From Dipteris shenzhenensis (lineage: Eukaryota), in NCBI GenBank assembly GCA_047967505.1, contig CM106538.1: DNA of 64,000 bases. The stretch is one strand, 5' to 3'. A program made the translations under genes and the position numbers. The notes below the pieces were generated by a model. The model worked only from the letters and a program-made list of their open reading frames with translations, was not told the DNA's origin and did no database searches. This document shows, piece by piece, positions 4,223 through 62,559 of the stretch (positions are counted from its first letter, which is position 1; every line of letters starts with the position of its first letter).

Positions 4223-4234
4223 AGAGGGAAGGAA
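4221..4234 (+). promoter_or_regulatory. polypurine tract (PPT)
   Basis: gaagagggaaggaa immediately before TG of the LTR; identical tract at 9553-9566. Confidence 0.9.
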
Positions 4235-33056: not shown

Positions 33057-33346
33057 AATAGCACTCAAACATAGACAATGTAAACATCATCACCATAAAT
33101 GACAAGTATTATGACACTTGTGGAGTGCGAGTTTTTTTTGGCTATCTTACTTCTGCTAGCACCTAGCTTGCATCTCAATACTTTCTTGCTCTCTTCCGAA
33201 GAATCCAGATTGGTTTGATAATTATATGCAGCCGAGCTGGCTGCCTTTTCCATGAAAAAGACTTCTATTAAGTAAGAACAAAAACCCGCGAGAGCAAGCT
33301 CAAGGCGGAATACATCATGAAATCATGAGGATAAATAAAAAATCCC

Positions 33347-39650: not shown

Positions 39651-42600
39651 TCAAGAGCCAAAAAGAAAGGATTGAGGATATAGTGCCATCTCAATCTAGT
39701 AGAAACCTCTGAGAAAAAGGGAGAACCCCTCCAAACTCGAAGAAATATAGTCCTTCTAGAAGAGGCTGCCCATGAAGGGCCCTGCATGCTAGCCCAGAAA
39801 TTTCTACGCAAATCTGCGGTGATGAAGAAGCTTTCCCAATGGGGGGCTCTGGAGGGAATCCAACCCCTACTGTTCAGCTGAAATCTCCTGGCATTACCAA
39901 CCGTGAAACGAAAGAAGGGAATCCCTCTCTCTCGGTGCCCATGATCTATCCACTCCCACTCTCCTAGGTACCACTGCAAGCACCTGATAGGTGCACCTTC
40001 ATATAACCACAACCTCCAGGATCCCAAGGCCAAGAGCAGAGGGTCGGGGTCTAAGTACCACTGCAAGCCCGCTCCATGGTCCACAAAACCAGCAATCCTG
40101 ACAGGCTGAAAGGCAACCTCAAGAAGAATGCCATCCTTGGATGTAGAAAGTAAACCTCCATCCCCAACATCAAAGACCAGTGTGTCTTCCCCGAGACCTC
40201 GGAGAGCGATCACCTGTAAAGGAACTGATGTCCTCGAAAAAGCCCCCATCCAAGTGGTGGAAGTAATAGGCAACTCAACTGTCCATTCCACCGAGATGGC
40301 TGCATCTATCTGCTGAATCTTGCGTGCTACCCCTCTGAGGTGACTCACGGACTACAGTCTCTGATCCTCAGGTAGCCTGAGAAAAGATTTCCAAGAGCCT
40401 ACTGTGTAGGCGGGGCCTCTCTCCCATTTAGACCACTACATGTAATGGGAAGTGCCCAGTGGTCTGGCATGCTCGTCAAGAATACTATCATTCCAAATGA
40501 TCGGCTGCCTATCAATCTCTTCGACGGTAGAAGGTGGAATCCTTCGAAGAGTGTTCCTGAAGCTCTCCCAAGCTTTCAGAATGGCAGTCATGAGAGGAGA
40601 GGCAGGAGATCTGAGAGGGGCTGAAGTGAAAATCCAGCGAGGGCTGTCCACCCAATCATCTCCCAAGGTTGGTGTGCAAGGCTGAATGTGTCCAAAAAAG
40701 AAATCCTTCCAAGGTTCCTGCCCAGGCATGAGTCCCCTCACCACCACCTTACAAAGCAATGCCCTGCACTGCATGTCTGGGTCAATGACATTAAGGCCCT
40801 CTTCACATGTAGGGAGAATAATGGTCTTCCAGGCCACCCTTGCTGTAACATCTACTGTGCCATCAAGTCTACTCCATAAAAAATTCCTGACTGGTCTGAT
40901 GAGCTGAGTGATGCAATCCCTAGACCGGCACCAACAAGAACACACAAACCAGGAGGTGGCCAAGAGAACCTGGTTCACTACCACAACTCTAGATGCAAGG
41001 TCGAGTTTGGCAGAGCTCCAGAAAAGGAGCTTTTTCCTTATACTTTCTAGTACTGGGGCAAACTGCTGTGCTGGAGAGATGTCCAATCCTACCTGGCATC
41101 CCAAATACCTGATAGGAACACCCCTCTGAATCCAGGAAAAACCAATGTCAATTCCCCAGTCTGGAGTGTCCTCATCACTGATCCAAAAGCCAAAGGATTT
41201 ATGCCAGTTAATGTGTGCCCGTGCAACTGAGCAAAAAATATCCAAGGCTGTCCGGAAAGAATCAGGTCACTGCAAGGAGGCCTCAATAAAAATAGCAGTG
41301 TCATCAGCCAACTCACAGTCAAAAAGCTCCTGCTCCTGCTCCTGTGTCTGTCTCAAGGGCAATCTCAGCCCAAAAAGATCAGCCTGAGATCTAAGGAAGA
41401 TACTCATAGCTTTTGCCACAAAAAGAAAGAGGAAGGGGGCTAAAGGGCATCCCTGACGAACTGATCTGGAAATCTGAAACCTGTCACCACTTACCCCTCC
41501 AATCAAAACCTGGCTGTGGGCTGATCTGTAAAGGGAGGCCACCCCTCTGATCCAAGCATCTGAAAATGCAAATCGTAGAAGAGTGCCCTCAAGAAAACCC
41601 CAATCTACTCTGTCATAGGCTTTTTCGAAGTCCAAGAGTAAAACTGCTAGCCTCTGCCCACTCTGCATAGCCCACTCTGTGGCTTCCCAAAAGGAAAAGA
41701 TATTATAAAAAATGCTCCTGCCATGCACAAAGCCTATCTGATTATCACGGATGAGGTCTGGAAGAAGGGGCTGTAATCGGATGCTGATCGCCTTGGCAAG
41801 GATTTTGTAAAGAGTGCCCAAAAGAGTGATGGGTCTCCAATGGGATACAAAATTCCTGTTGCCACCTTTCGGGATAAGGTGAATGAGTCCCTCGGTCAGT
41901 GAGTCAGACATCTCACCTGAGTCCCAAATGCCCTGCAGCGCTGAAGTAATATGACCACCTATCATATCCCAAAAGGCTATATAAAAAGAAGTAAGACCAT
42001 CGGAACCAGGGCATTTGCCCTTATGAAGGGCAGAGAGAGCAGTCTTGAATTCTGTGTTGGTAAAGCATGCATCAAGTGAGCATAACATCTCTGGGGTGAC
42101 CAACACAGGTAAACTCTGCCAAACTTCATCTCTAGCCACCTCTCTAGCCTGTGAGTTCGGATCTCCGGAAAGTAGGGAGGTATAGAAAGCTGTCGCTAAA
42201 TGCATGACGGTTTCCGGATGGGACTGCAAAACACCGTCAGAGTCAATAAGCTGCCTGGCACTCTCTCTACTATGTCTGGGACCAAGTGTAGAGAAAAAGT
42301 GTTTATTAACTCTCCCTCCCATCTGTATCCAAAAGGACTCCCGTACATGGAAGGCATACTCTGCTCTCTGATCAAGCAAGGTCTGCAAGTGAGCCCTTGC
42401 CGCAGCAAGGCGCTCCTGTATCCAAGCAATTGATGGTCGTTTCTACTCCTCCCTCTGTAGGGCTGCCAGCTGCCGGCGGATACCGATCTCTCGCTTGAGT
42501 ACCTCACCTCGCCGAGCACTAGCAATGGAGTGATAGAAGTCGCTGATACTGGCAAGTGCTGTGGCCACATGTGAAGGACCGGCCACCCCCCCTTGCATAT

Positions 42601-43444
42601 GAGAAACCCAGATCTCCAACACTACCTCTGTAAGAGTCTCATCTGTGTATAAGGCGTCTAGGATTCTGATACTATGAGATCGTCCTCTCAGATGAGGCTC
42701 TGAAATGGACAAAATTACCGGAAAATGGTCTGAAGTGGAAACACCGGGTGCAATGCAAACTGTCCCCCCTCTATCAAGAGCCGAGTTACCCACATAGAAT
42801 CTGTCAATCCGAGCATGGATAGGCATCTGCACCCTATGGTTCGACCATGAAAACAAAAGTGACTGAGACTGAACAAGAAATGCATCATCTGACCAAACAT
42901 CTCTGCTAGTGAACCTGAACAAGAAGGCATCCCAGGCTGCTCTCTCAAGGGGGTGGATACCACCTTCTCTGCCCCCTTTCTTATCAGAAGGTGCCTCAAC
43001 CATGTTGAAGTCACCTCCAATAATCCACGAATCCGCAATGTCAGCCCAGGAGAGCAACTCTTTCCAAAACAAAACACGGTCCCCTCTGTTGTTTGGAGCA
43101 TAAAGGTTGAGGAAACCAACCTTACATCCGTCAATCAAAAGTAAAACCCACTGGGCCCTGGAGGGGGTTATGGTACCGTGTCCAATGACCAGAGGGAGAA
43201 TAGAGTCTGAAACTGAAATGCATGTACCTCCTCTGGTTCCCAAGGCAGGAAGCCAAAAAGTCCGGCCTGAGAGCAGCTTACCTAACTTGGAGCAATCTCT
43301 GATATCCAGTTTGTGTTCCTGAAGAAAAAGAATGTCTAGGGAACCACCTGAAACACCTGGATGGAGCTGGTTCTTGATCAGCTGTCAGGGACGGCGATGA
43401 GGGATGCCGCCCAATCCCTGTATATTCCAACTGGCTATCCTCAT
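39651..43444 (-). pseudogene. LINE B ORF2, several stops and a 549-bp deletion
   Basis: MRIASWNIQGL start at 43444; EN and RT motifs in ORFs 42443, 41267, 40436, 39605. Confidence 0.94.
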
Positions 43445-44814
43445 CGGCGGGAGGAAGTGGGTTGGAATACCTTACCCGACCTGGTGGCGGAAACAGAAAC
43501 CTCTACCGGAGTAGACCTCCTGCCATACACACGAGGTCCAAGGGGAGGAAAGTCCACAGGTGAGAGAGAGAAGGATCTCTCAAGAGGGATGCCGATAACT
43601 GGCTCTGCAAAAGTAGAGGGTACAAAATTATCATCTGGGAGGCTAGAGAGGTCCTCCAAAGCGGAAAATGAGTTCTGCTGAGCCAGTCCTGGGGAGGGGG
43701 TACGAAGGATTCCTACCGAAGCAGGAAGAGAATCTAAAACCCTCTTCCCTCTGTCCAAAGAGGGAGGCACCTGTACTGGATCCTGATCAAAAAGTGGTGC
43801 GGACGAGGTGCCAACAACCATTGCTGAGGAAGGTACAGCCTGATCCAAGGGTGGAGTCGAACAAGGCTCCTGAATAGTAGTCTCCTCCTGAGGCTCCAAG
43901 GGGGTAGCCTTCGAAGAGGTGGAGGAGTGAACTAAAGTAGAGGGCCTAGCCGCGATCGAAACCCACCGTGGGCCAGAGGTGGTGCGGGGTGCCGAAGGGA
44001 CTCCAGTAGCCCTAGGAGAGGGGGGAGCCCGTGTCTGAGGCCGTGTCTGTGGAGCGGTAGGTCTTGTTCCAGCTCTCTGTCGTAAGCTAGTACGAGTTGG
44101 TTGCTTTGTGGGCCTCTTTTTTTTCTTTGGGCAATCTCTAGCGAAGTGCCCCGAGGATTTGCAAATTCTGCACTGGTCCTGCCGATCTGCAACCTCAAAT
44201 CTCTGGCGGAAGAAGGACCCATGGGGTCGCTGTAGCATGATGTGGTCATCTGAAATATTGGGGTCCTGGACAATGATCCTAACCCTGGGTACCCTGTCCA
44301 TCCTGACCGCCTCAGCAGCCGAAGAGGGCTCGCCAGGGAGAGGGGGGATCTCTGCCACCATACCAAACCTCTTGCCAATAATTGAAAGAAGCCGGTGATA
44401 AACTGAGGGAAGACCAGGGAACCTGATGAAAACAGAAACTCGCTGCTTGTCCTCTTCAACTGGGTCAAATCCCAGTTGAAAAGGAAACAAAAAGATCCTC
44501 CTGTAGCCTAGAAGTAGAAACCCGGCCTGTAGCAGGTCTCTCGTGACGTCCGAGGAATCTAGGCACACCTGAAAGAAACCCCGTCCCAACAAACGAACAT
44601 CCTTGAGGTGGGGGGCGAGGTCCTGAGGAGGCGCTGCCAGCATCCAATCTCTAGCTTGTGACCTGGAGGGGTGTGAGCCATGAATGCATGCGAAGAGAGT
44701 TGTGGAACACTCATGCTCCAAATCCTTTTGCAACTACTGCAGCTTGTCTTTTTTAAAAGTGATAGTTCTCGCGGCCGGTGTGGGCGGAGACGGATTGTCT
44801 GAATGGGAACCCAT
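43441..44814 (-). pseudogene. LINE B ORF1, one premature TAG near 44735
   Basis: LLGRGFF RRM-like segment, CRICKSSGHFARDC, Pro/Ser-rich tail. Confidence 0.9.
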
Positions 44815-45749
44815 TCGTCAATCGAGGTGTGTTGGCTGATTCAAACATAAAAAATAGAACTCCGTCCGCTTTCCTGAAAACCCAGCAGACCCCTAAAAGA
44901 GAACAGGGGTACTCCGAATGAACGAGGGGGTGAAGAACAAGGGAGAGAGAAGAAGAAACCAAGGGGAGACAACGGCAGCAAGGAGGAGGAGGGGAGGATA
45001 GAGGAGAGGAGGAGAGGAGGAGAGGGGGAGAAGAGGAGTAGAGGAGAGGGGAAGGAGAGAGGAGGAGAGGAGAGGGGAGGAGAAGCAAGGAAGAGCAGGG
45101 GGGGAGAGGAGGGGATAGGCTGCAGCGGGGGGGGGGGGGGCAGCAGGCTGCAGCGGGGAGGGAGCAGCAGCAGGTGCGGGGGGGAGCAGCAGGCTGCAGC
45201 GCAGGGGGAGCAGCAGCAGGCACGGGGGGGGAGCAGCGCGGGAGGCTGCAGCAGCAGGGGCAGCGCGCAGGGGAGAAGGCAGCACGGGGGAAGGGGGCAG
45301 AGCAGGGGAGAGGGCAGGTAGGAGGGGGCAGCGAGGAGGGAAGGGAGGGGGCAGCGAGGAGGGAGCAGGAGGAGCAGCAGGGAGCGGGGAGAGAAGCAGC
45401 AGGAGGAGCGGGGAGAGGAGCAGCAGCAGGGAGGAGGAGCAGCAGGAGGGAAGGGAGGGGGCATCGAGCAGGGAGAGGAGGGGAGCAGGAGGAGCGGGGA
45501 GCAGCAGCAGCAGCAAAACTCCTTTTGTTGCTCTAACAGCTTGGCAAAATTTAAGGGCATAGTTGTGGCGGAAGTTAATCATGCACGTCAGACCTTTTGC
45601 CCATATACAAGAGAATTTGCTATTGAGACAGGTAGTTTGAAACAATGATGCTCATGTAGATCAAAGGGTGCTAAACCTATATACTAGATAGTAGACTTGC
45701 TCATGTAGATCGGAGGGTGCTAAACCTATAGACTTCCTCAATTAGCTTA

Positions 45750-48455
45750 AAACTCAAGATGCTTTAGTCCACAAATGCATAGTCTGAGGTGGAGTTAACA
45801 TGATGGATGTGTAGAGTACTTTCTTGATCTCTCCAAGAAGCTGGACATATATAAGCATCGATGCAAGCAACAACATAAGAGGATAAAGAACTCGAGGGCG
45901 AGTTTGCTTTGCTGAAGAGTGCTTGGGGTGCAAATCAAGAATTGGCATAGGTGATATTAGAAAGGCAAGCCTTGCAAGCAAATCTGGATGCATTGAGGGC
46001 AGAATGGGAAATGGTGGTCGACCTATAGAATTGGATGCAGAGGGTGTTGAGGGCCGTGGTTTTATTGGACCTTGATTTTACCGATCCCCTAGTCCTTGTA
46101 CGAAAGGACTAGGTATGCCGCTCAACAAGATTGGGTTTTAGTAATGAGTTTGACAAGAACCCCTTAAGCATGATACTACCTACGATTCTAGGGGAATCAA
46201 GTATAATGCTAGCCAAGCAATTAGTCGTAAGTGTGCATAATATAACTGACCATTCAAGCAAGGCTATGATGACTCCATAAACCTTCTTGGGCTAAAGAGA
46301 AGCCTACTGCTTTGTCCTGCGGAGGTATTCGAGGAGAGCAACACGTATAATATCCTTTAGCCTAATAGTCCCTTAGTGCCAAGAGTTTGTTCGCCATCAA
46401 CTAGAGATGAGAATCCTCTCTATCCAGCAAACCTGGGGAAACACTTGATAGATCTAGCGGCACTTAAGGACACCTCCTAGCACTTTCAACCATTATGCTC
46501 CTCCCATGCTCCCTCAACGCCCATCATACTCATCCCATCATCATGGCAAATGAGGCCAATGTCATCATCACAAACCTCTGAGTCTAAGTCACTCTCATAT
46601 GCCTCTCTAACGCCTCTACCATTGATTGCAATAAAGCTATCCTCATACAGCTAGAATATGATTTGTGTCCACCACTCTCATAATAATCATATGCATCATC
46701 CAATGTGTTAGAAAAATCTATGAGTTTATCTCTAGCTTTGTTAAGTTTCCTAGATGAGGGTCATGGCAAAATTCCTTAATGATCCCATAGATCGAGCATT
46801 GGGGGACAAAGCTGAGGAGTACCCTTGGCAGGTGAGTTGAAGCCTTACCGAGTGGTTTGAAATATTTAGTGAGCTTCAAAGAGTCTGGTACCAGGACCCA
46901 GTAGATTGAATGCCATGCAAGTGAGAGTAGTTAGAGATGGGAGGGTTGAGGGAACTCCGAGAAACTGAGCCTTGCCATGCCAATAGGGCTAGTTTTGATG
47001 CCTGATTAGGCACAAATAAGACTGACTTTGGTTTAGAAGAACCCAATTTGGTGGGAGAGGTTAATCAAGCAAATGCACCACTGTAGGAACAAGGCTCAGA
47101 TTCTACACTAGCGCAGGTGTAAAGGCTGACGATCTGCAGGTAGGATACCTAGAAAAGAAAGCATTAGAAGCTAGCATTGACTTATTATCTGCACCCCATA
47201 ATTGAGATAGGAGATTTAGCAATTGAGCCGGTGTCCGTACTCCTCTCGAACAATTATGTGGTTGTTTTCAATACACCACAATAGAAAACTCCACTAATAA
47301 TTGTGCCAATGCCTTGTTGAAATAAAAAAATTTGTTGAATAGAATGGAGGAGATGCCCAGATTGCGGTCTAAGGCCAAGGTACTTGACTATCTGCTCTAG
47401 CAAGTGAAGTAGCTCGAGCAGTCGGAGTCAATACTTAGTCAAACAGAGATCTATTAGTGCAGCCATCTAAAACAGGTATAGAACAAAATTTTTGATTGGT
47501 CAAAACTCTAGGATGGTCAAACTTTGACCAGATTTTGATTGTTTCCCCCAAATGGAACAATCTGAAGCTGGAGGCCCAAATTGGAGCTGAAAAAAGAAGC
47601 ATTCAAGGGGATTTCGGCATGGAAATGAAGCTCTTACTGAGAACTACTTCCAGCAAAGAGAAATGGCGAAATTTCACGTTGTGTCATAGTGGAGAGATGT
47701 GCCTATTCCGATTGGTATTTGTGTGATTTGTCTACAATCACTGCACCATTTGAGCTCAAATTTCGTGAGCAAACTCCTTACAGCATTGCCCTACGGTGTG
47801 TTAAAGGAATTAGTGCAATTGTACTCCAGCATGACGAATTCATTGAAGTTTTGTTGAAAGTTTGTCAAACGAAGACTGTGTCGGCATGCGCAGTAGAGGC
47901 GAGCATTCTCCAATTCCTTTGAGCCAAAGAGTCGCCCCAAGTCAAGGATGCTTCAGCTCAAAGGGCTTGGCAAATCATGCAGCAACAAAGCTAAGAAAAA
48001 TCTGGAAGAGAAAGAGGGAAAAATGTGGAAGGAGGTGGAGAGTGGAGAAGAAGGTGATGAGGTGGCACTTTGGAGCTAGATTAAGCTAGGAGCATGAGGT
48101 GGAAGCTCAAGGAGGATAGAGTGTCTCTGATATGACATGTTGGGAAGTGGGAGAGAAGGAGGAGATCATGGAAGAGAGTGTGGGAACCAAAGAGCAAAAT
48201 GTTCCATCGAGTTGAGAGAAAGTCCTTTTTTTTTATAGAATGGGAGAGAGATTGGCCTAGATCATAGGTACCTCTCCTACATCAAAGGAAATCATTCCCT
48301 ACATCATAAATCAAAGGCACCTCCCCATGTGGGGGCCTTTGCATTACATCATCACTTATGTCATAGTCTAGACATATCATAGCACTTAGTGTGCTACACA
48401 CACACACACACACACATGATCATAGAGCAAGCCCTTGATCACAAAATTCCCGACA
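45750..48455 (-). mobile_element. heavily decayed LTR element 5' part; LTR 48138-48455
   Basis: TGTTGGGAA...TTCCCGACA terminal inverted repeat; degenerate iMet PBS (tctctgatatga, 48124-48135); internal extent uncertain. Confidence 0.6.
48396..48416. repeat. (CA)n microsatellite inside the LTR
   Basis: acacacacacacacacacaca. Confidence 0.95.
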
Positions 48456-49114
48456 TGACTCTTGTGGGGTAATGGGTGGTAAATGTGTGTGTGCTTTGGG
48501 ACGGGGTAGTGGTCCAAAAGAGGTTTAGATCCTTTTTTTGGGGGGGGGAGGTCTAGATCCTTTGAAGCAACTTACCATTATGTACACAGTAGTATGAGAT
48601 AGTATTGGTTCATTGATGGCTAGTGGATCATAGATGGAGGTGTACGCATGAGTGTTTGAATACTTGCAGCATGGAAAAGATTCCATTGGTTATGTTTATT
48701 TTATCATGATGCTAGCTTGGGGGCTTGTCCCAACACTTAAATGTATTTGTGCCATATAGAGGGAGGCATGTTCCCTTATCTTGTTGTTTTACATTCACCA
48801 AGGATACTGAATGATTTAGTGCCGGGGAAAACTGTTGTAGGCCTTGTGGAGAATGGAGTAGAAGAGGCCTAAATGGGGATAAGTAGGAGAGAGCCATGTG
48901 GCATAAAAGGAGTTACCCCACATATGATGGGTTGTGGAGAGGGCTTGGGGAAGTTGCCATAAGTGTATTTGAAGGAGACTTGTGTTTTGGAAAAAGGGGG
49001 AATTCTGCATCTGAGTCTTATCTTGTTTCATTTGTTGGTGTACTCTTCTTTCAGTAATTTGTGATTATAGGTTGTCTTACCATAGGGCCTAGGACACACT
49101 CCCCCCAAAAAAAA

Positions 49115-49169
49115 TGTGTGTAGATATGTATGTATATAAATGCATATACATACACATACACACACACAC
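49115..49169. repeat. compound (TG/TA/CA)n microsatellite
   Basis: tgtgtgtagatatgtatgtatataaatgcatatacatacacatacacacacacac. Confidence 0.9.
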
Positions 49170-49975
49170 TTGTTTTTTGGGAGGGTAAAAGAACCTTTCA
49201 TTAAGAAGAATGTACATTCATAGCTATCTCAAAGTGAGACAAGTACTACTCATGCTAAAAAACTGAAAAGAAAACATACTCTAGTTGCTCCAGTAAAGAA
49301 CAGGTAGTACTAGACAGCTAAAGACACTTCTAGCTAGGCCGCAGGAAGAACACCCATGAAATGTGCATCCTGAAGGGAGCGATGCAGGGAGGAACGGAAG
49401 AAATGATAAACATCCACAGTGGATTGTCCATAGAGCCGAGAGTTATGGGCATGATATAAAGACCATAGTGCCCAATAACGACACCAAGTGAAAAATTGAA
49501 TATAGTCGGTGTAGAAGTATATCTCTCAAAAAACCAAAAGTGCCTACCATAAGCAATGCTAGGAAATCAGACACGAAGATAAGTCCCCAATCTGGAAAGA
49601 AAATCATTGGGCAACCGGGCATATCTAGAGTAGATGCAGGACTGTCTCCCTTGGATATGAACAAGATGGACAATGGGAGGAAGTAATGCACATGGCAACG
49701 AAGAATGAACTCATTGGTAGAGCACCAACCAAACACCGCCATAAGAAATGTTGTTGCCTGAGTAGGAGCTTATTACTGTTCCAAATACGACCAAGACAAA
49801 CCTTCCACCAAGTAAGAGGTTTGTCCAAATGCCAAATAAAAAGGCCACGCTCTTGAATCCATAGCTGTGATAAAAGAAGATGATAAGCTTTCTTGGCAGC
49901 AATATCTGCCACAAAGAAGAAAGTAGAATAACCTAGAATGCCTCGATCTCGAATCTCCAATCCATAAGAGAATGG
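49170..49975 (-). mobile_element. 3' fragment of an older D-related LINE (D')
   Basis: T tract 49170-49178; WHLDKPLTWW..FLWRCLVGALP..CPSCSYPRETVLHLL homologous to the D ORF2 C-terminus. Confidence 0.85.
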
Positions 49976-52190
49976 TTTTTTGTGAGATTTGCTTTTCCAA
50001 AATATCTCCATAGCCTGGGACATATAGGAAGCCAAATGCTTAAAAGACCAGGGAAGAAGAGGCAAATAAAATTGCACATATGCCATAATGATAGACTGTA
50101 CTATTCGAAGTCGAACATGTAGAGGTCAAGTGGACAAATGCCAGTATTCCAGCTTCTTGTTAATCTTTTGAAGCACCCATTTGAGCTGTTGTTGAGGGGT
50201 AATATTCCAGCCAATGGGATACCCTAAATGCCTCACAATAGTATGGGAAGAAACAATGTGGCCTGGCCAGAGAAGTGCATGCCAATCAACTTCTTTCAAT
50301 GCTAGAAGATTCGATTTTTGAAAGTTAATATGCAGTCCAGCAGCTATGCCAAAATCATTTAGAGTATGCATCAAATGAGAGAGGTCACTTTGAGAATTCT
50401 TGGGCATGAAATATGAATCATCAGCATATGCCTGTGCAAGAAACGGTTGTGCCCCTGGAATTTGCAAGCCATGAAGCTGTCTTGTATCTACAAGATGGTC
50501 CATATGCAACAATAACGGATGAGTAGCAATGGCATATAGTAGCGAACTAAGGGGGCAACCCTGTCTCACTGAGCGGGTCATAGTCCATGTCCTTGACAAC
50601 CCACCACCAAGCAAACACTGCGCAGTGGCATGAGAATAGAACCAGTAAATAATATGGACCAGCCGAGGGCCAAATCCCAATTTATGCATAGTCTGAGAAA
50701 TAAAATCCCAATGGACAGTATCAAATGCTTTCGCAATGTCCACTTGTAGAATGAGAACATCTTGTTTAGAATATTTGGCATACTCAATTGCAAGCAAAGC
50801 ATTGGAGATATTGTCAGTAATCTGCCTTCTGGGAACAAACCCATACTGCCTGGGATGAAGTCCTGCTTGCAAGATAAACGGAACCCTGAGGACAATCATT
50901 TTGGCAATGAGTTTGTAAATGACTGGCATAAGAGATATGGGCCGCCAATCAGCCATTGTCTCACACAACCTTTTTTTGGGGATCAATTTGACAAGGCTAT
51001 GTTTCCAAGAAGGAGGAAGAGATTGTTCTGCCCAAGCATGATTGATCATAAGAAGAAGAGTGTTCTTGAGATCACCCCAAAATGCACGGAAAAATTCAAC
51101 AGTCAATCCATCCCAACGAGGAGAGCTGCCTTTACGTAAATGACTCAAAGCATCATCCAGTTCATTAAGCATAAAGGGCTGCTCCAATGCATGAGCCTGT
51201 TCTCGAGACAATATAGGGTGAACATGCATAAGAAATTGAGACCTAGCTGCATTCACTTGCATCGAATGATCAGGCTAAGGAGAAAAGAGATGCTGGAAAT
51301 GACTAGAGCATTGCGATTCCAATTCTAATTTGGAGGTGGTCCAGGTGCCATCATCTTGCTTGATCCTGCAAATATCCTCCTTTCGGCTATCCGCATGCAG
51401 GCTTTTCAAGAAGGCTTTGGAGGAGCAGCCCTTATCCAAAAGGGGTTTCATACGAGCTCGGATTTGCCACTTCTTTAATTTGCGAAGATCATTTTGATAG
51501 ATGATATGAACCGCTCCATCAAGAGAGGGACTACTATTCTCCATTATGGAGGTGATAAGTACTCCTACAGAGACTGGAAGGAATTATGTCCTGTTCAGAG
51601 GAGGTGAGGTGCCTATAAGAGCTGATTACATCCATTTGTTGCTTGTGAGATTGAGCCCATTTCAGCTTCAGCCTGAGGTTTCCCATGTAACTCCGTCCAT
51701 AATCTTGAATAACAGCCTGCAAGCGATGGGCAAGACTAATCCAAGCGAAATCCATTGGATTACAGATCAATGGGAAGCAGTCATGACCACATTTCAGGGA
51801 AAAATTCCTGGTTGTCCTATTTCTACTGCTTTTATTCATGATTGGAAGAGAATTCTCTCTTATGCTAAATGGTCAGGTGCTTCTTCCCATCATGGTAATT
51901 CTCTTCGCTTGGAAAGCATCCATTGGAGCAAGGTGTTTGAATCGCCTCTTGCTTTACAGGCACCTATTAAAGCATATAATCTTATGAAATTGAGCATAAG
52001 ATTTGTCATAGATGTTGTGGATCAACATGGTTATGTACTTTCATTTCCACAAGCTTGCAGGACATTCCCCTTGGGTCTACATCATAGGCCCATTTGGAGA
52101 ATACTTACAACTATGTTGCAGCCATTTGTTCCTGTTCCTCCACTGTTTGTACAGGACAAATTACTGGACTGGAATCTGATTTCCTTATCT
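49976..52190. mobile_element. rearranged family D LINE: minus segment 49976-51755 joined head-to-head to plus segment 51753-52190
   Basis: Minus part corresponds to 59209-60900; plus part corresponds to 61091-61528. Confidence 0.9.
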
Positions 52191-55045
52191 ATGATCTTCG
52201 CAAATTAAAGAAATGGCAAATCTGAGCTCGCATGAAACCCCTTCTGGATAAAGGCTGCTCCTCCAAAGCTTTCTTTAAAAGCCTGCATGCAAATAGGCGA
52301 AAGGAGGATATTTGCAGGATCAGGCAAGATGATGGCACCTGGACCACTTCCAAATCAGAATTGGAATCACAATGCTCTCGTCATTTCCAGCATCTCTTTT
52401 CTCTTCAGCCTGATCATTCGATGCAGGTGAATGCAGCCAGGTCTCAATTTCTTGTGCATGTTCAGCCTATACTGTCTCGGGAACAGGCTCATGCATTGGA
52501 GCAGCCCTTTATGCTTCATGAACTGGATGATGCGTTGAGTCATTTACGTAAAGGCAGCTATCCTCGCTGGGATGGATTGACAATTGAATTCTTCCGTGCA
52601 TTTTGGGGTGATCTCAAAAACACTCTTCTTCTTATGATCAATCATGCTTGGGCAGAATAATCTCTTCCTCCTTCTTGGAAACATGGCCTTGTCAAATTTA
52701 TCCCCAAAAAAAGGTTGTGAGAGACAATGGCTGATTGGCGGCCCATATCTCTTATGCCAGTCATTTACAAACTCATTGCCAAAATGATCGTCCTCAGGGT
52801 TCGATTTATTTTGCAAGCAGGACTTCATCCCAGGCAGTATGGGTTTGTTCCCAGAAGGCAGATTACTGACAATATTTCCAATGCTTTGCTTGCAATTCAG
52901 TATGCCAAATATTCCAAACAAGATGTTCTCATTCTGCAGGTGGACATTGCAAAAGCATTTGATACTGTCCATTGGGATTTTATTTCTCAAACCATGCATA
53001 AGTTGGGATTTGGTCCTCGGCTGGCCCATATTATTTACTGGCTCTATTCCCATGCCACTACGCAGTGTTTGCTTGGCGATGGGTTGTCAAGAACCTGGAC
53101 TATGACCCGCTCATTGAGACAGGGTTGCCCTCTTAGCTCGCTACTGTATGCTATTGCTACTCATCCATTATTGTTGCATATGGACCATCTTGCCACAGCG
53201 CACCTTCATGGATTGCAAATTCCAGGAGCACAGCGATTTCTTGCACAGGCATATGCTGATGATTCATATTTTATGCCCAGGAATTCTCAAAGTGACCTCT
53301 CTCATTTGATGCAGACTCTGAATGATTTTGGCATAGCTGTTGGACTGCATATTAACTTTCAGAATTCAAATCTTCTAGCATTGAAAGAAGCTGATTGGCA
53401 TGCACTTCTCTGGCCAGGCCACATTATTTCATCCCATACCATTGTGAGGCATTTAGGGTATCCCATTGGCTGGAATATTACCCCTCAACAACAGCTTAAA
53501 TGGGTGCTTCAAAAGATTAACAAGAAGCTGGAATACTGGCATTTGTCCACTTGGCCTCTACATGTTCGACTTTGGATAGTGCAGTCCATCATTATGGCAT
53601 ATGTGCAATTTTACTTGCCTCTTCTTCCATGGTCTATCAGGCACTTGGCTTCCTATATGTCCCAGGCTATGGAGATATTTTGGAAAAGCAAATCTCACAA
53701 AAAGGCTTTGCGATTACTTCCCATGCAGTCTGTTTGTTCTCCTAAGACTCATGGGGGACTGAATATACTCAATCTTCAGTTTCATATGTTAGCAAGAAAG
53801 AGCACTATGATTGCTGATTTTTTCCAAAAAAAATAGCCATGGGCTATTATGTTAGCAGCTATGTGTGGAAACATGATGTCCCATTCATATGGGCATTGGA
53901 TTACAGATCACTGGGAAGCAGTGATGACCACTTTTCAGGGGAAAATTCCTGGTTGTCCTGTTTCTACTGCTTTTATTCATGATTGGAAGAGAATTCTTTC
54001 TTATGCTAAATGGTCAGGTGCTTCTTCCCATCATGGTAATTCTCTTCGCTTGGAAAGCATCCATTGGAGCAAGGTGTTTGAATCGCCTCTTGCTTTACAG
54101 GCACCTATTAAAGCATATAATATTATGAAATTGGGCATAAGAATTGTTGGAGATGTTGTGGATCAACATGGTTATGTGCTTTCATTTCCACAAGCTTGCC
54201 GGACATTCCCCTTGGGTCTGCATCATAGACCCATTTGGAGAACACTTACAATTATGTTGCAGCCATTTGTTCCTGTTCCTCCGCTGTTTGTATAGGACAA
54301 ACTACTGGACTAGAATATGCTTTCCTCATCTCCTGCTACCTGTTCACTTTCAATGCATAATCTCACTTCCTCGATGGTCTACAGGTTTCTTCTTCCACCG
54401 CCATGGATTGATAAGCATGCCAACACTCTTTGGAATTTGGATAGGCCTTTATCTTGGTGGCAATTACAACTCAAGAAAATTTGGAAAGCCAAATTGCCAT
54501 TGAAACAGAGGCTTTTCTTTTGGAGATGTATAGTGGGAGCTTTTTCCGTTGGGGTGAAATTGGCAGCACGTCGTATTGCTTCCTCTTCATGCCCTCGTTG
54601 CTCTCATCCCCGCGAGACAGTTCCCCACTTGTTATGGTCCTGCCCGCACTCTCGAGTATTGCTCACTCATGTCTCTCATTTGCTGCGGCTTCGATTTCCC
54701 TCTATCAGATTCGGGAAACTCTTTTGGATGTTTGGATGCTTCTCATCTCAGATGTCTGCTTTCCTTCTTTTCTTTCACTGGGCTCATTTCTGGCTATTAT
54801 GGACCATTTGGACACAGAGATTGCATTCTAGGATGGGACAACAGTTTCCTCAGGCATATGCCTTCTTCAGAATGTCCCTCAAGCAATCTTTATATGATAG
54901 TTATGCTGCAAAGGACTTGGATGCTACTAGTCTTGAAGTGTTTTCTGACTGTTTTTGAGTTTTTCCATTAGGCTTCTTTTGGAGTCTAATGCCATGTACA
55001 TTGATTTAATGTTAATAATATAGCTACTGGTTTCACAAAAAAAAA
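52191..55045 (+). mobile_element. 5'-truncated LINE, family D
   Basis: Colinear with 59411-62242; RT (WRPISL, DIAKAFD, QGCPLS, YADD); poly(A) 55037-55045. Confidence 0.95.
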
Positions 55046-55053
55046 GTGTGTGT

Positions 55054-56624
55054 ACCCCTCAACAACAGCTCAAATGGGTGCTTCAAAAGATCAATAAGAA
55101 GCTGGAATACTGGCATTTGTCCACTTGGCCTCTACATGTTCGACTTCGGATAGTACAGTCTATCATTATGGCATACGTGCAATTTTATTTGCCTCTTCTT
55201 CCCTGGTCTTTTAAGCATTTGGCTTCCTATATCCCAGGCTATGGAGATATTTTGGAAAAGCAAATCTCACAAAAAGGCATTGCGACTTCTTCCCATGCAG
55301 GCTGTTTGCTCTCCTAGGACTCATGGGGGACTGAATATTCTCAATCTTCAGTTTCATATGCTGGCAAGAAAGAGCACTATGATTGCTGATTTTTTTCAGC
55401 AAAAACAGCCATGGGCTATTATGTTAGCAGCTATGTGTGGAAACGTGATGTCCCATGCATATGGGCATTGGATTACAGATCACTGGGAAGCAGTCATGAC
55501 CACATTTCAGGGGAAAATTCCTGGTTGTCCTGTCTCTACTGCTTTTATTCATGATTGGAAGAGAATTCTCTCTTATGCTAAATGGACAGGTGCTTCTTCC
55601 AATCATGGTAATTCTTTTCGCTTGGAAAGTATCCATTGGAGCAAGGTGTTTGAATCACCTCTTGCTTTACAGGAGCCTATCAAAGTATATAATCTTATGA
55701 AATTGGGCATAAGATTTGTCGGAGATGTTGTGGATCATCATGGTCATGTGCTTTCATTCCCACAAGCTTGCAGGACATTCCCCTTGGGTCTGCATCATCG
55801 GCCCATTTGGAGAATACTTACAACTATGTTGCAGCCGTTTGTTCATGTTCCTCCGTTGTTTGTACAAGACAGATTGCTGGACTGGAATCTGACTTCCTTA
55901 TCCCCTGCTACCTGTTCGCTCTCAATGCATAATCTGGCCTCCTCGATGGTCTACAAATTTCTTCTTCCACCTACATGGATTGATAAGCATGCCAACAATC
56001 TTTGGAATTTGGATAGGCCTCTATCTTGGTGGCAATCATGACTCAAGAAAATTTGGAAAGCCAAATTGCCATTGAAACATAGGCTTTTCTTTTGGAGATG
56101 TATAGTTGGAGCCTTCTCCATTGGGGTGAAACTGGCAGCACGTCGCATTGCTTTCCCTTCCTGCCCCCGTTGTTCTTATCACCGTGAGACAGTTCCCCAT
56201 TTGTTATGGTCTTGCCAGCACTCTCGATTATTGATCACTCATGTCTCTCATTTGCTGCGGCTTCGGTTTCCCTCTATCAGATTTGGGAAACTCTTTTGGA
56301 TGTTTAGATGCTTCTCATCCCAGATGTCTCCATTCCTCCTTTTCTTTCACTGGACTCGCTTTTGGGTACTCTGGACTATTTGGACACAGAGATTGCATTC
56401 TAGGATGGGACAACAGTTTCCTCAAGCATATGTTTTTTTCAGAATGTCCCTCAAGCAATCTTTACATGATAGCTATGCTGCGAGGGACTTGGATGCAACT
56501 AGCTTTGAAGTGTTTTCTGACTGTTTTTGAGTTCTTCCATTAGGCTCTCTTTGGAGTCTAATATCATGTACATTGATCTCATGTTAATAATATAGTTACT
56601 GGTTTCACCAAAAAAAAAAAAAAA
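55054..56624 (+). mobile_element. 5'-truncated LINE, family D
   Basis: Colinear with ~60678-62242; poly(A) 56610-56624; gtgtgtgt on both flanks. Confidence 0.95.
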
Positions 56625-56716
56625 GTGTGTGTGTGTGTGTGTAGATGTGTGTGCGTGCTGCAGGGTGAGAGAGAGCTGCGCGCAGGTGTGTGTGAGAGAG
56701 ACAGCCTCGCCAGGAT

Positions 56717-57081
56717 CCCGTACAGCCTCCACTCCTGTCCGTACATCTGTACGGTCGCCGTACGTTTACCGTACGACCGTACGAACAGGTCTGGCTCAGC
56801 CTTGCGCAGTTTTGAGCAGTCCTGCACGTGTTTGCATCGCCATCGCTGTACCTTTTTTGAAGGCCCTTCCGTACGTCCGTAGAACCCTGTCCATTTCCGT
56901 ATAGTCTAGTCTCCGTGTGCAGTTTTGTTTCTTGCGTACAGTCTCCTTGTTCCCTGTCAGCATCTCCGTATGGTTCAGTCTCGTCCGTACAGTCTCCTCC
57001 GTATATCCGTACACTCCCGTCTTGCCCGTACAATCCTGCACCTTTTCCGTACAGATTATCACGTTCAAACCCTGCCGTACA
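56717..57081 (+). promoter_or_regulatory. CCGTAC motif cluster in the LINE D 5' UTR (putative internal promoter)
   Basis: 14 GTAC cores counted in ~365 bp, 12 of them CGTAC on +. Confidence 0.6.
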
Positions 57082-57128
57082 GTTCTGGTTTTTTCTGCGA
57101 CTTCATCAATCCTGCCCTGCTTACCTCC

Positions 57129-58214
57129 ATGGAGGACCATCTTAAAAGTTATTCCTGGAAGGACTTGTCCCAGGACTCCAAAAGACAGCAAGTTGATTTC
57201 TCTACCTCGGCCTCTGTAGATGCTCACTATGTTTTCGACATGCTCAAGGATGAATTTCACCACAGCCGGAAGGAGTGGGCCAAACCTCCCCCGGTCCTTA
57301 AGTATAAGCTGAAGCTGCCCTCATTGGTCACTCCTTTCCGGAAGTTCTCTCAGCAAGCAGTTATCATTTTCTTCCCTGGGAAGTTACCTTCAGCAAATGA
57401 TGTGGCTCAGTGGGTTCATGCTTTATTGGGAGGTTGCTTTGTTGAAGGAGTATACTTTGCTTCTCGAGGTTTTTATGAAGTGCACTTTTTGGATGCCTCA
57501 TATCGTCAGCAGATATTGGAGATGTCCCCTCTATTCTATGGCAGACAAATGGTGCATGTCATCCCATGGTCGCCAAACAAGGATTATCACTGTCTCATTC
57601 GACATCACTGCCCTGTATGGGTTGAGGTAGTGGATTTTCCGGATTATATGAGGGCTGAGTTACCAAGTCTGGCAGCTACTTTGGGGCAAGTTATATGCCC
57701 ACCCCGTCCTTCGGGTAATCGAAATCGGTTTTGTGTTCTTTGGGATACAGATCACCCAACCCCTCCTTCCATTGCGGTAGAGGTGGAGGATGTTCCCTTG
57801 GGCGAAAAATATTTTGACTTGAAATGGGGAGTCTTTGCAGGTGCTTGTTTCACATGTCATAAGTTTGGCCACCTAGCTTCACAGTGTCCTGCAGTCCTGC
57901 ATCAGCTCCCACCTACAGCTATTGCTCCAGAAAATACTTCCCCTCCAACTTATGGTCCAGGGCCTAAGGCTATGCCTAGCAAGTTGGGTGATGTGGCATC
58001 TAAATCTGTTCCTCCCAAAGAAAGTGTGGTCCAGGTTTCAGCCAAGCAAAAGGATAAGGGAAAGGGCAAAATTCAGAATCTAATGCCTCTCCCCAGGGTG
58101 CCTGGCAGCAACCCAAAAAGGTATTTGTGCTCAAGCCATGACCGTTACAATCTCGGCATTGGGATGCCTCTACTTCCACCCCTGGTCAGGCCTCTACCCC
58201 TACTGATAGCCTGA
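57129..58214 (+). CDS. LINE D ORF1 (RRM-like plus CCHC knuckle); C-terminus possibly frameshifted
   Basis: SRGFYEVHF, VIPWSP, CPVWVEV, CFTCHKFGHLASQC. Confidence 0.85.
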   Translation: MEDHLKSYSWKDLSQDSKRQQVDFSTSASVDAHYVFDMLKDEFHHSRKEWAKPPPVLKYKLKLPSLVTPFRKFSQQAVIIFFPGKLPSANDVAQWVHALLGGCFVEGVYFASRGFYEVHFLDASYRQQILEMSPLFYGRQMVHVIPWSPNKDYHCLIRHHCPVWVEVVDFPDYMRAELPSLAATLGQVICPPRPSGNRNRFCVLWDTDHPTPPSIAVEVEDVPLGEKYFDLKWGVFAGACFTCHKFGHLASQCPAVLHQLPPTAIAPENTSPPTYGPGPKAMPSKLGDVASKSVPPKESVVQVSAKQKDKGKGKIQNLMPLPRVPGSNPKRYLCSSHDRYNLGIGMPLLPPLVRPLPLLIA

Positions 58215-58375
58215 CTTTGTGGGTTGATGTGCTTAAGAAGGGTATTTTTGTATGTGACAATGATGAGGACTATAGAGCTAATGATCCAGGAGGCTAGGTG
58301 GACGTCGATGTCATGGCTGAGGCCTGACAACTTATACCTTTACTATGTTTTTTGGTTCGGCTGTACATATCTTCT

Positions 58376-61300
58376 ATGTCTACTTCAATTACTTGCATTA
58401 CATACAATGTTCAAGGTCTTTGCAATGTCAATAAGTGGAGACTTATTTGGCACTATGTACATAGAATGCACCCCGATGTAATTTCTTTACAGGAACACAA
58501 CCAACACTTCTTGGCTGGCCAGCAAGGCCACTTTGTTGGTTATGACATCTTTTATGCTGGCACAATGCACTTTTCGGGGGTATGCATGCTGGTGAAACAT
58601 GATATGCAGCCCACGGTTGCTCACAATGACCCCCAGGGTCGATGGAGATGCATCTGTCATGCTGATCTTTATGAAATAGCATCTGTTTATGCCTCTCAGA
58701 CTTCTGCGACAAGAGCTCAAATGTGGGCCTCCCTCAAACAATATCCATGGCTGTCTAATGCCTTTTTGTGTGGAGACTTTAATAACTCGCCTGCCATCCA
58801 AGACAACACCACTCATCGTTCTCACATGATCCCCACTGAGCTTCGACATTGGGAGGATATGCTTTCTTTCTTGCATGCAGAAGATTTATGGCTCTCAACA
58901 AGGGATAGAGATATGCGTTACACATACCGTCACAATGCCTTTACTCATTACTAGGCTCGACTTGATAGATGGTATCTGTTGCATGCTCAGCAGTATGCTA
59001 GTTTTACATGCGCATTACGGGTTGATCATTCCCTCTTGCTATCTGATCACTTTCCAGTATGCTTGACATTATCTATAGCACATTTGACAGATGATATGCC
59101 GTTTTTTGGTCGTCGCCACTCCATGTTAATAGTGCTTACTTGCTTCATCAACAATTTCAGAACATGGTGAGAGTGGTTGTCTGCCCCCTCCTCTTACGTC
59201 AGGAGGACATGGATTTCGCTTGGATCAGTCTTGCCCATCGCTTGCAGGCTGTTATTCAAGATTATGGACGAAGTTACATGGAAAACCTCAGGCTAAAGCT
59301 GAAATGGGCTCAATCTCACAAGCAACAAATGGATGTAATCAACTCTTATAGGCAGCTCACCTCCTCTGAACAGGATTCTTGCGCTTATGCGGTTCATATC
59401 ATCCATCAAAATGATCTTCGCAAATTAAAGAAGTGGCAAATCCGAGCTCGCATGAAACCCCTTTTGGATAAGGGCTGCTCCTCCAAAGCCTTCTTTAAAA
59501 GCCTGCATGCGGATAGGCGAAAGGAGGATATTTGCAGGATCAGGCAAGATGATGGCACCTGGACCACCTCCAAATCAGAATTGGAATCGCAATGCTCTAG
59601 TCATTTCCAGCATCTCTTTTCTCCTCAGCGTGATTATTTGATGCAAGTGAATGTAGTTAGATCTCAATTTCTTATGCATGTTCAGACTATATTGTCTCGG
59701 GAATAGGCTCATGCATTGGAGCAGCCCTTTATGCTTAATGAACTGGATGCTGCTTTGAATCATTTACGTAAAGGTAGCTCTCCTGGTTGGGATGGATTGA
59801 GTATATCTCAAAAACACTCTTCTTCTTATGATCAATCATGCTTGGGCAGAACAATCTCTTCCTCCTTCTTGGAAACATGGCCTTGTCAAATTGATCCCCC
59901 AAAAAAGGTTGTGTGAGACAATGGCTGATTGGCGGCCCATATCTCTTATGCCAGTCATTTACAAACTCATTGCCAAAATGATTGTCCTCAGGGTTCGATT
60001 TATCTTGCAAGCAGGACTTCATCCCAGGCAGTATGGGTTTGTTCCCAGAAGACAGATTACTGACAATATCTCCAATGTTTTGCTTCCAATTGAGTATGCC
60101 AAATATTCTAAACAAGATGTTCTCATTCTGCAAGTGGACATTGCAAAAGCATTTGATACTGTCCATTGGGATTTTATTTCTCAGACTATGCATAAATTGG
60201 GATTTGGCCCTTGGCTGGTCCATATTATTTACTGGTTCTATTCTCATGCCAATGCGCAGTGTTTGCTTGGTAGTGGGTTGTCAAGGACATGGACTATGAC
60301 CCGTTCAGTGAGACAGGGTTGCCCTCTTAGTTCGCTACTGTATGCCATTGCTACTCATCCTTTGTTGTTGCATATGGACCATCTTGCAGATACAGGGCAG
60401 CTTCATGGCTTGCAAATTCCAGGGGCACAGCCGTTTCTTGCACAAGCATATGCTGATGATTCATATTTCATACCCAGGAATTCTCAAAGTGACCTCTCTC
60501 ATTTGATGCATACTCTGAATGATTTTGGCACAGCTGCTGGACTGCATATCAACTTTCAGAAATCGAATCTTCTAGCATTGAAAGAAGCTGATTGGCATGC
60601 ACTTCTCTGGCCAAGCCACATTATTTCTTCCCATACTATTGTGAGGCATTTAGGGTATCCCATTTGCTGGAATATAACCCCTCAACAATAGCTCAAATGG
60701 GTGCTTCAAAAGATTAACAAGAAGCTGGAATAGTGGCACTTGTCCACTTGGCCTCTACATGTTCGACTTCGGATAGTACAATCTATCATTATGGCATATG
60801 TGCAATTTTATTTGCCTCTTCTTCCCTGGTCTTTTAAGCATTTGGCTTCCTATATGTCCCAGGCTATGGAGATATTTTGGAAAAGCAAATCTCACAAAAA
60901 GGCTTTGCGACTACTTCCCATGCAGTCTGTTTGTTCTCCTAAGACTCATGGGGGACTGAATATTCTCAATCTTCAGTTTCATATGTTGGCAAGAAAGAGC
61001 ACTATGATTGCTGATTTTTTTCAGCAAAAACAGCCATGGGCTATTATGTTAGCAGCTATGTGTGGAAACATGATGTCCCATGCATATGGGCATTGGATTA
61101 CATATCACTGGGAAGCAGTCATGACCACATTTCAGAGAAAAATTCCTGGCTGTTCTGTTTCTACTGCCTTTATTCATGATTGGAAGAGAATTCTTTCTTA
61201 TGCTAAATGGTGAGGTGCTTCTTCCCATCATGGTAATTCTCTTCGCTTGGAAAGCATGCATTGGAGCAAGGTGTTTGAATCGCCTCTTGCTTTACAGGCA

Positions 61301-62155
61301 CCTATTAAAGCATATAATCTTATGAAATTGGGCATAAGATTTGTTGAAGATGTTATGGATCAACATGGTTATGTGCTTTCATTTCCACAAGCTTGCAGGA
61401 CATTCCCCTTGGGTCTGCATCATAGGCCCATTTGGAGAATACTTACAACTATGTTGCAGCCATTTGTTCATGTTCCTCCACTGTTTGTACAGGACAGATT
61501 ACTGGACTGGAATCTGACTTCCTTATCTCCTGCTACCTGTTCACTTTCAATGCATAATTTGGCCTCCTCGATGGTCTACAGATTTCTTCTTCCACCGCCA
61601 TGGATTGATAAGCATGCCAACACTCTTTGGAATTTGGATAGGCCTTTATCTTGGTGGCAATCACAACTCAAGAAAATTTGGAAAGCTAAATTGCCATTGA
61701 AACAGAGGCTTTTCTTTTGGAGATGTATAGTGGGAGCTTTTTCCATTGGGGTGAAATTGGCAGCACGTCGTATTGCCTCCTCTTCCTGCCCCCGTTGCTC
61801 TCATCACCGTGAGACAATTCCCCATTTGTTATGGTCTTGCCCGCACTCTCGGATATTGATCACTCATGTCTCTCATTTGCTGTGGCTTCGGTTTCCCTCT
61901 ATCAGATTTGGGAAACTCTTCTGGATGTTTGGATGCTTCTCATCTCAGATGTCTCCATTCCTCCTTTTCTTTCACCGGGCTCGTTTTTGGATACTATGGA
62001 CTATTTGGACACAGAGATTGCATTCTAGAATGGGACAACAGTTTCCTCAGGCATATGCTTTCTTCAGAATGTCCCTCAAGCAATCTTTATATGATAGTTA
62101 TGCTGCGAGGGACTTGGATGCTACTAGCCTTGAAGTGTTTTCTGACTGTTTTTGA
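58376..62155 (+). pseudogene. LINE D ORF2 (APE EN, RT, zf-RVT), multiple stops and frameshifts
   Basis: MSTSITCITYNVQGL, LQEH, GDFN, RLDR, SDHFPV; YADD; CPRC..ETIPHLLWSC. Confidence 0.94.
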
Positions 62156-62559
62156 GTTCTTCCATTAGGCTCTCTTTTGGAGTCTAATGTCATGTACATT
62201 GATTTCATGTTAATTTTATAGTTACTGGTTTCACAAAAAAAAGTATGTATGTATATAGGCAAGATCAAGGTGCATATCTACACTCCACTCGGACCATGAT
62301 CACTAAGTTTTCCCATCAGAGAGCATGGACCAACAGACCCTTGGGAGATAACAGAGCCGAGGTCTAGAGCAAGACACGACAGAATTGCCATCGGGTTGAT
62401 GCACAGATCAGGATTAGGGACCTTCTCTCCATGTTCACTGAACTGGAGGCATGACTGACGGGTGTGACAGATCTGATATAGGGCCATAGCTAGGAGACCA
62501 CAAAAGACCATACATATGGACTGTTGCCAGCATTCTATCACAGTTTTATGGCACTGCAG

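Follow-up and report, generated by a model that had tools for sequence, protein, structure and literature searches.

Why do the copies of a fern retrotransposon end, one after the other, in poly(A) followed by a GT-type repeat? The question is raised by a 64,000-nucleotide stretch of Dipteris shenzhenensis contig CM106538.1 (assembly GCA_047967505.1; hereafter the window), in which six pieces of one lineage of long interspersed nuclear elements (LINEs) adjoin one another in a stack at 49.1–63.6 kb, within 14.5 kb. The pieces are copies I to IV of an element here called D, a piece of a related family, D', and a degraded fragment, E. Unlike the D-lineage pieces, LINEs of other families in the window are scattered among long terminal repeat elements. 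There is good support for the view that members of one fern LINE lineage stacked up sequentially at GT-type repeats, in a consistent orientation. That the D lineage targets such repeats, in a broad sense that covers a preference of its endonuclease as well as a match of the primer to the RNA end, is assigned a probability of about 0.45.

The evidence begins with the 3' ends of three D copies and of D'. Read at its junction, copy II ends in A9 (55037–55045), which is directly followed by GTGTGTGT (55046–55053) and then by copy III. Copy III ends in A15 (56610–56624), followed by (GT)9 (56625–56642) and AGAT(GT)3. At the end of copy IV, A8 (62235–62242) runs into GTATGTATGTAT, with GTATGTATGTATAT after A8. 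The 3' junction of D' (49142–49180, minus strand) was likewise determined by junction reading; leftwards from 49179 it consists of AAAAAACAA, or A6CAA, and then (GT)6 ATGTGTATGTATAT. A GT-type repeat thus directly follows poly(A) in all four D-lineage 3' ends, and the four junctions described in an earlier note on this DNA were all recovered. On the sense strand of the element the repeat is GT in 4/4 cases and AC in 0/4. The 3' end of the first-strand primer was therefore ...AC-3' each time.

The seven other LINE 3' ends in the window (7420, 10420, 11266, 14297, 33246 and 39550 on the minus strand and 23895 on the plus strand) run into ordinary 3' flanking sequence. None of them has GT, in agreement with the earlier note. 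The difference between 4/4 D-lineage ends and 0/7 other ends gives p = 0.003 in a Fisher test, a value that overstates independence because one array supplies three of the four ends. GT/AC runs of at least 8 bp occur nine times in the 64 kb and account for 0.16% of bases; seven of the nine fall within 48.3–56.7 kb. Perfect 12-mers of the purine-T type with at least three G are found at 0.03% of positions, counting both strands. The association between poly(A) and GT is supported as real, non-random and orientation-consistent. Copy III has GT on both sides, as the earlier note had pointed out, and the left GT doubles as the 3' flank of copy II. No GT is present at the junctions 49976/49977 and 52190/52191, again in agreement with that note.

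The arrangement of the copies bears on how the array arose. Copy II (52191–55045, plus strand) is truncated at its 5' end at D 59411, is 92.6% identical to copy IV and is separated from copy III by (GT)4 (55046–55053). Copy III (55054–56624, plus strand) is truncated at D 60677 and is 93.8% identical to copy IV. It is followed by (GT)9, AGAT(GT)3 and a GT/GA-rich stretch (56625–56700), the limit between this spacer and copy IV being approximate. Copy IV (~56643–62242, plus strand; 5' limit approximate) is near full length and is followed by (GTAT)3 AT (62243–62257), which is either tail or spacer. Head-to-tail order and a short spacer are what a tandem duplication of one copy with its GT flank after insertion would produce, the case that the earlier note had set against its own proposal. 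This case is excluded for practical purposes. The units differ in length (2855 bp for II, 1571 bp for III, about 5600 bp for IV) and in their 5' ends, spacer and poly(A) lengths differ as well, and the substitutions form a star-like pattern in which derived changes are hardly ever shared. Over 1555 shared columns the private substitutions number 65 in copy II, 68 in III and 26 in IV; over 1487 columns they number 28 in I, 68 in II and 33 in IV. Of the 54 variable sites in a stretch of 437 columns covered by four copies, just 7 are common to two copies.

The same counts separate two age classes. Private change amounts to ~4.3% in copies II and III and to ~1.8% in copies I and IV, a ~2.3-fold difference (p about 1e-5). 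An older pair, II and III, and a younger pair, I and IV, are accordingly supported, which means that at least two waves of insertion reached one spot. The younger copy IV lies between the GT tract of copy III and the old fragment E, and the younger copy I lies between D' and copy II. It is well supported that distinct insertion events, spread over time, produced the array.

Copy I is rearranged. Its inverted arm (49977–51755, minus strand) corresponds to D 59209–60900 with 94–96% identity, and its direct arm (51753–52190, plus strand) corresponds to D 61091–61528 and lacks the 3' end. In the RNA, the source of the inverted arm lies upstream of that of the direct arm, with a 190-nt gap between the two. 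Microhomology (TGGATT/CAT) is found at the inversion point, and at the left junction a T-run lies on an element-internal A5. Judged by this structure, copy I is a twin-priming-type inversion. A stretch of 74 bp in copy I (51515–51588) corresponds to 13 bp in copy IV; a contig of sequencing run X1 has the form of copy IV. Where the direct arm meets copy II (D 61528 to D 59411), the joint shows no homology and lacks poly(A). It may have arisen either by a later deletion or by a template switch.

An internal template switch is also what the joint would represent if the whole array were a concatemer, that is, if the reverse transcriptase had jumped, during a single integration, from the 5' end or an internal position of one D RNA to the 3' end of the next, with no target between the copies. 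The differing truncation points are compatible with such an event. The ~2.3-fold difference in private substitutions is not predicted by it, and the GT at D' and after copy IV would be left unexplained. A single-event origin is thus very unlikely.

A further explanation is that the copies gathered at a GT-rich, rearrangement-prone spot by local accident or passive accumulation, and that the GT at the ends of D is a coincidence. The cause could be that insertions prefer resident LINE ends, that recombination is low or that Z-DNA-forming repeats tend to break. All the evidence comes from one 14.5-kb stretch, the locus also contains an inversion, a non-homologous joint and a palindrome, and passive accumulation is the explanation given for Drosophila Waldo-A and Waldo-B near CA repeats in the relevant part of PMC3812793. 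Accumulation does not account for a poly(A)/GT junction that is exact and consistent in orientation in four of four ends, including one of a different family, D', on the other strand. Furthermore, copies of two age classes entered the same tracts, and such junctions are missing from the window's other LINE families. We therefore regard accumulation as unlikely.

The two outer members of the stack differ from D to different degrees. D' (49181–49976, minus strand) is the 5'-truncated 3' part of a LINE, comprising the zf-RVT region and the 3' untranslated region (UTR), and corresponds to about D 61490–62242. It matches D by tblastx with 33–52% amino acid identity over the zf-RVT region and has no nucleotide match to it; its zf-RVT domain is recognized by Pfam with E = 1.2e-4. 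The earlier note had taken D' for a diverged copy of D. Instead, it represents a separate, related family that resembles D at the protein level only. E (62258 to ~63620, plus strand) is a degraded D-lineage fragment with open reading frame (ORF) 1 and the first residues of the endonuclease. It begins near the position of the ORF1 start and adjoins the GT-type tail of copy IV. Its ORF1 shares 45–60% amino acid identity with that of D, and the nucleotide identity is 65% over 358 bp. In a comparison of E with the rest of the window no LINE-related match was found, the single match of 12 amino acids at 2838–2873 being at chance level. These similarities support E as a sixth D-lineage piece that continues the stack.

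Which kind of LINE is D? In copy IV, the 5'UTR extends to 57128, ORF1 starts at 57129, and ORF2 extends from ~58376 to its stop codon at 62155, followed by the 3'UTR and A8. Both reading frames are interrupted by stop codons and frameshifts. Copy IV lacks ~21 bp at 59800–59805 that are present in copy II and in contigs of two sequencing runs; with this loss and several stop codons, copy IV is not an intact element. ORF1 resembles DUF4283 (E = 8.5e-6; 25.9 bits, just under the Pfam cutoff of 27.2) and zf-CCHC (E = 0.006, below the Pfam cutoff). ORF2 contains an endonuclease domain of the apurinic/apyrimidinic endonuclease (APE) type (Exo_endo_phos, E = 4.3e-10), a reverse transcriptase domain (RVT_1, E = 3.2e-31) and zf-RVT (E = 8.5e-12). 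An ORF1 with DUF4283 and CCHC is characteristic of plant L1 elements. Among the matches listed, proteins of Gossypium and Lactuca carry PF14111. The best homologue of D with a solved structure is human LINE-1 ORF2p (E = 2.6e-23), followed by R2 (E = 4.7e-17). The earlier designation of D as a plant LINE is upheld, and the domains together with the ranking of solved homologues place D in the L1 group.

Within this group D appears to stand apart. Among the matches listed, the closest proteins to the D reverse transcriptase come from Adiantum nelumboides (63% and 60% identity), and the next tier reaches at most 40%. A reverse transcriptase tree was computed from 33 rows (30 of the 120 matches listed and three sequences of the window), with no labelled Tx1 sequences among them. 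With a support of 99, D falls together with the Adiantum sequences and two unnamed ones. It lies outside a clade of 13 seed-plant L1 rows and outside the window families B and C; the deep nodes of the tree lack resolution. No Tx1 name occurs among the 120 matches listed, and the Xenopus match P0012, which scores 462 bits to human ORF2p, is a genuine L1. The A8, A9 and A15 tails, the 5' truncations and the twin-priming-type inversion are L1-like traits. Pfam gives APE, RVT_1 and zf-RVT only, with no GIY-YIG or Penelope-like domain in D, and two ORFs and an A-run ahead of the repeat distinguish D from the RTE type. From these comparisons D is classified as an L1-group APE-type LINE of a separate fern lineage.

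In the 5'UTR of copy IV, the region 56718–57080 contains 11 of the 16 plus-strand CCGTAC hexamers of the window, mostly as CCGTACA/G, and 15 CCGTA motifs are present in the same 491-bp 5'UTR. A GTAC core is the binding motif of SBP/SPL-type factors. The cluster may be a putative internal promoter array of copy IV.

If the D lineage targets GT-type repeats, the array can be understood as follows. The fern lineage of L1-group APE LINEs to which D, D' and E belong would use target-primed reverse transcription for insertion, and first-strand synthesis would be primed by the AC strand of a tract of the (GT)n.(AC)n type. Each new copy would then end in poly(A) followed by GT on the sense strand. As GT would be kept on the insertion flanks, later copies could enter the same tract, and a head-to-tail stack would grow. 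We infer that GT was present before the insertions and that the preference belongs to the element rather than to the locus. Endonuclease-level specificity of D for (GT)n is plausible but unproven.

Besides the exact junctions with their constant orientation, the rarity of GT/AC runs, the separate insertions at one spot and the contiguity of the six pieces, two observations favor a target. The first is an (AC)10.5 tract at 48396–48416 and a (GT)5 tract at 48484–48493, which lie 70 bp apart and ~700 bp to the left of the stack. No element is present there, so the locus has native GT/AC tracts. The second is the poly(A) length, which varies (8, 9 and 15) like that of real tails. The layout of poly(A) followed by the repeat, with copies stacked behind it, also resembles that of microsatellite-targeting APE LINEs. 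The unoccupied tracts also give a weak hairpin-type match to Rfam.

The same two observations count against an element-borne tail. Here, D would bring an A-tract followed by (GT)n(GTAT)n, with the GT/GTAT part either reverse-transcribed or added at priming. The arrays would be secondary, the GU end of a new RNA pairing with the AC strand of a resident tail. Such a pairing between a microsatellite-like RNA end and the target has been proposed for RTE and other LINEs in the section of PMC6007223 concerned. The form of the repeats agrees with a tail, since (GT)n-GTAT-GTAT-AT is found in D', in the mirror arm of the palindrome described below and in copy IV (or in III and IV together, if IV split the tail of III). 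Against a tail, the RTE ends tabulated in PMC6007223 finish in the repeat, with no A-run listed ahead of it. Additionally, the GT lengths range from 8 bp to more than 25 bp, and no second poly(A) follows the GT. An element-borne tail is possible, though on this evidence rather unlikely.

A further indication of a tail comes from the left end of the stack. An additional A8-TGTGTGT... junction on the plus strand (49107–49140) mirrors the tail of D', and an imperfect palindrome extends from 49096 to 49190, each arm of which consists of CCYCCC, poly(A) and a GT/GTAT stretch. The mirror arm, delimited by inverted match (49100–49141, plus strand), reads CCCCCC, A8 and then TGTGTGTAGATATGTATGTATAT. 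The inverted match scores 40 over 41 columns, compared with a mean of 16 and a maximum of 28 in shuffled sequences, and the predicted hairpin has an energy of -22.5 kcal/mol (z = -5.9). The end of the 3'UTR, poly(A) and GT are thus copied as one unit. One microsatellite cannot read GT beside poly(A) on both strands. Consequently, either an inverted duplication took place after insertion or the GT arrived separately with each end, and the palindrome may have arisen either by foldback duplication or by two tail-to-tail insertions.

Attempts to assign the mirror arm to another element gave the following results. The region upstream of it (47900–49114) is unlike any LINE in the window. Comparison of the palindrome region with microRNA families yielded only sub-threshold matches to those of the GT/AC-hairpin kind. 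The A8 at 49107–49114 (plus strand) was considered as the end of a LINE or a short interspersed nuclear element and rejected, with no LINE similarity, no tRNA and only the sub-threshold microRNA-type matches.

Several points weigh against targeting by the D lineage. The palindrome, with GT adjoining poly(A) on both strands, is awkward for a target that existed beforehand. The ends come from one array and one solo end and amount to ~2–3 effective loci. The GT upstream of copies III and IV and of E is the 3' tail of the neighboring copy and is therefore uninformative. The sole foreign 5' flank, that of copy I in the body of D' at 49976, has no GT, as a tail would have it, and the 5' end of copy II is the non-homologous joint to copy I. 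For copy IV, no clear target-site duplication is readable. The GT stretches have a common compound form of (GT)n, GTAT units and AT, and an AGAT interruption is common to the spacer after copy III and the mirror arm; both features could reflect a templated tail. Finally, base pairing between a primer ending in AC and an RNA ending in poly(A) is impossible, and priming would depart from the L1 model in this respect. If the repeat at the RNA end pairs with the nicked target, as proposed in the part of PMC6007223 on priming, tail and target would be two sides of one mechanism.

Three other origins of the GT were considered and rejected. Birth of a microsatellite from poly(A), as described in PMC3812793 in its treatment of this process, yields A-rich repeats, and (GT)n would need all bases changed. 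Simple 3' transduction does not fit the missing second poly(A). Insertion into a resident poly(A) through an L1-like TTTT/A nick is inconsistent with the new copies, which follow GT and do not lie within the A-run.

Known systems combine these features in other ways. According to the survey of targets in PMC3812793, microsatellite-targeting LINEs include Mino at (AC)n and Waldo at (ACAY)n in the R1 clade, Kibi at (TC)n and Koshi at (TTC)n in the Tx1 clade, and Dong at TAA. Crocodilian Tx1 families target (TTCC)n/(TTTC)n, as reported in the corresponding part of PMC4494074. D resembles the animal R1 and Tx1 elements in having APE and reverse transcriptase domains and a 3' end that adjoins a simple repeat. 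It differs from them as a fern element that groups with Adiantum and has a plant-type DUF4283 ORF1 and zf-RVT, and its specificity is at this stage putative. PMC4494074, in its definition of target specificity, regards a non-LTR element as target-specific if more than 20% of its flanks contain the target; in the window, the repeat is present in 4/4 D-lineage 3' flanks, from the one array and the solo end. The same source describes tandem copies of SINEU-3, a SINE mobilised by Tx1 and directed at a Mariner transposon, and ascribes them to sequential insertion.

Elements with the same repeat type or a similar kind of array are found in other groups. Togen, described in PMC4640811 among the NeSL-related fish LINEs, is (TG)n-specific and thus shares the repeat with D, but has a restriction-like endonuclease, whereas that of D is of the APE type. 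The Penelope-like elements Chlamys and Naiad of the green lineage show a bias to (CA)n, (C)n or (TA)n and form partial-tandem and inverted 5'-truncated copies, as outlined in PMC8557442 for these elements. Chlamys has a bias of the CA/GT type, as proposed for D, and a strikingly similar order of an inverted truncated copy, partial tandem copies and a full copy. In contrast to D, Chlamys and Naiad have a GIY-YIG endonuclease, a Penelope-type reverse transcriptase and no poly(A). The L1-CS LINEs of Cuscuta europaea target the satellite CUS-TR24, and several diverged masters share the preference, as the account in PMC8091179 has it. They are a plant L1 lineage that prefers a repeated target, as the D lineage may do; unlike D, they use an L1-like TTCTA/TTTCAA site within the satellite monomer rather than a dinucleotide microsatellite. 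Microsatellite-like 3' tails occur in LINEs and SINEs, for example (GTT)n in plant RTE, and pairing of the RNA tail with the target has been proposed to guide nicking or priming (PMC6007223, in its discussion of such tails). Both RTE-type elements and D have a simple repeat at the 3' end, but RTE ends in the repeat itself and D has A8–A15 first.

In the pertinent sections of PMC4640811, PMC3812793 and PMC4494074, the sequence-specific APE LINEs are animal elements of the R1 and Tx1 clades. The literature searched, subscription journals and Repbase reports being outside its scope, yielded no microsatellite-specific LINE of plants or of L1 proper. In its strictest form, the proposal is that a fern L1-group lineage, of an age that allows for families as distant as D, D' and E (about 50% amino acid identity), is (GT)n-specific, nicks the AC strand and builds self-extending arrays. 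It would extend microsatellite specificity in APE LINEs for the first time beyond animals and beyond the R1 and Tx1 clades; this version is put forward as tentative. If it is true, microsatellite specificity arose independently in plants, and D would become a second system in nature in which to study how a dinucleotide repeat is recognized, whether by an APE domain or at the primer-RNA step. Stacking of D could help to explain the growth of LINE nests and compound repeats in very large fern genomes. If the GT is instead an element-borne tail behind poly(A), it would merit description even so, as a 3' end out of the ordinary in an L1-group element.

Copies of D were also sought outside the window. 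Twelve sequencing runs contain part of the stretch, with a best word share of 0.38. Contigs of four runs were aligned to 56500–62330 at a likeness of at least 85%, skipping the simple repeat at 56600–56657. In this way 279, 26, 18 and 61 contigs were aligned from the organisms coded A, B, D and C, respectively, and the D family is therefore multi-copy and present in several of the coded organisms. The region 56500–57084 has no cover in the four runs, the contigs of which are of low depth. None of the loose contig ends listed (24 of 102) lies at 62242; one contig ends at 62240 with 36 unaligned letters. The 13 listed loose ends before the aligned part have no GT repeat and were not counted as evidence, since one of them (59805) is an indel and several of the other 12 look like diverged homologous sequence.

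Other searches were negative within their scope. An exact pattern of 24 nt from the D 3' end had no match in metagenome or viral contigs, and a protein-guided search for loci with the ORF2 C-terminus had none in metagenome or prokaryote genome contigs. A search with an 88-residue query for stray minus-strand ORFs that span the flank, AC repeat, poly(T) and 3'UTR of other copies returned two candidates, none of them significant.

Outside the stack, the window contains further elements. Purine-rich tandem repeats of the GGAGG type are present at 12615–13220, 21693–22114, 39130–39492 and 44981–45515. Two of these arrays lie at the 5' ends of minus-strand LINEs of other families (~33246–39500 and 39550–45500), whose 5'UTRs thus seem to contain arrays of C-rich repeats. 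At 39550, the minus-strand LINE has a tail of the A5(TAA)6A type and not plain poly(A), the A-rich type of microsatellite expected from repeats born from poly(A). Two adjacent copies of a Ty3-type polyprotein are located within 3–9874 and are 87–89% identical; the second is split by a minus-strand LINE at ~7420–8800. A Ty1/copia-type element with an RVT_2 domain (29178–33059) lies between 201-bp repeats at 29178 and 32859.

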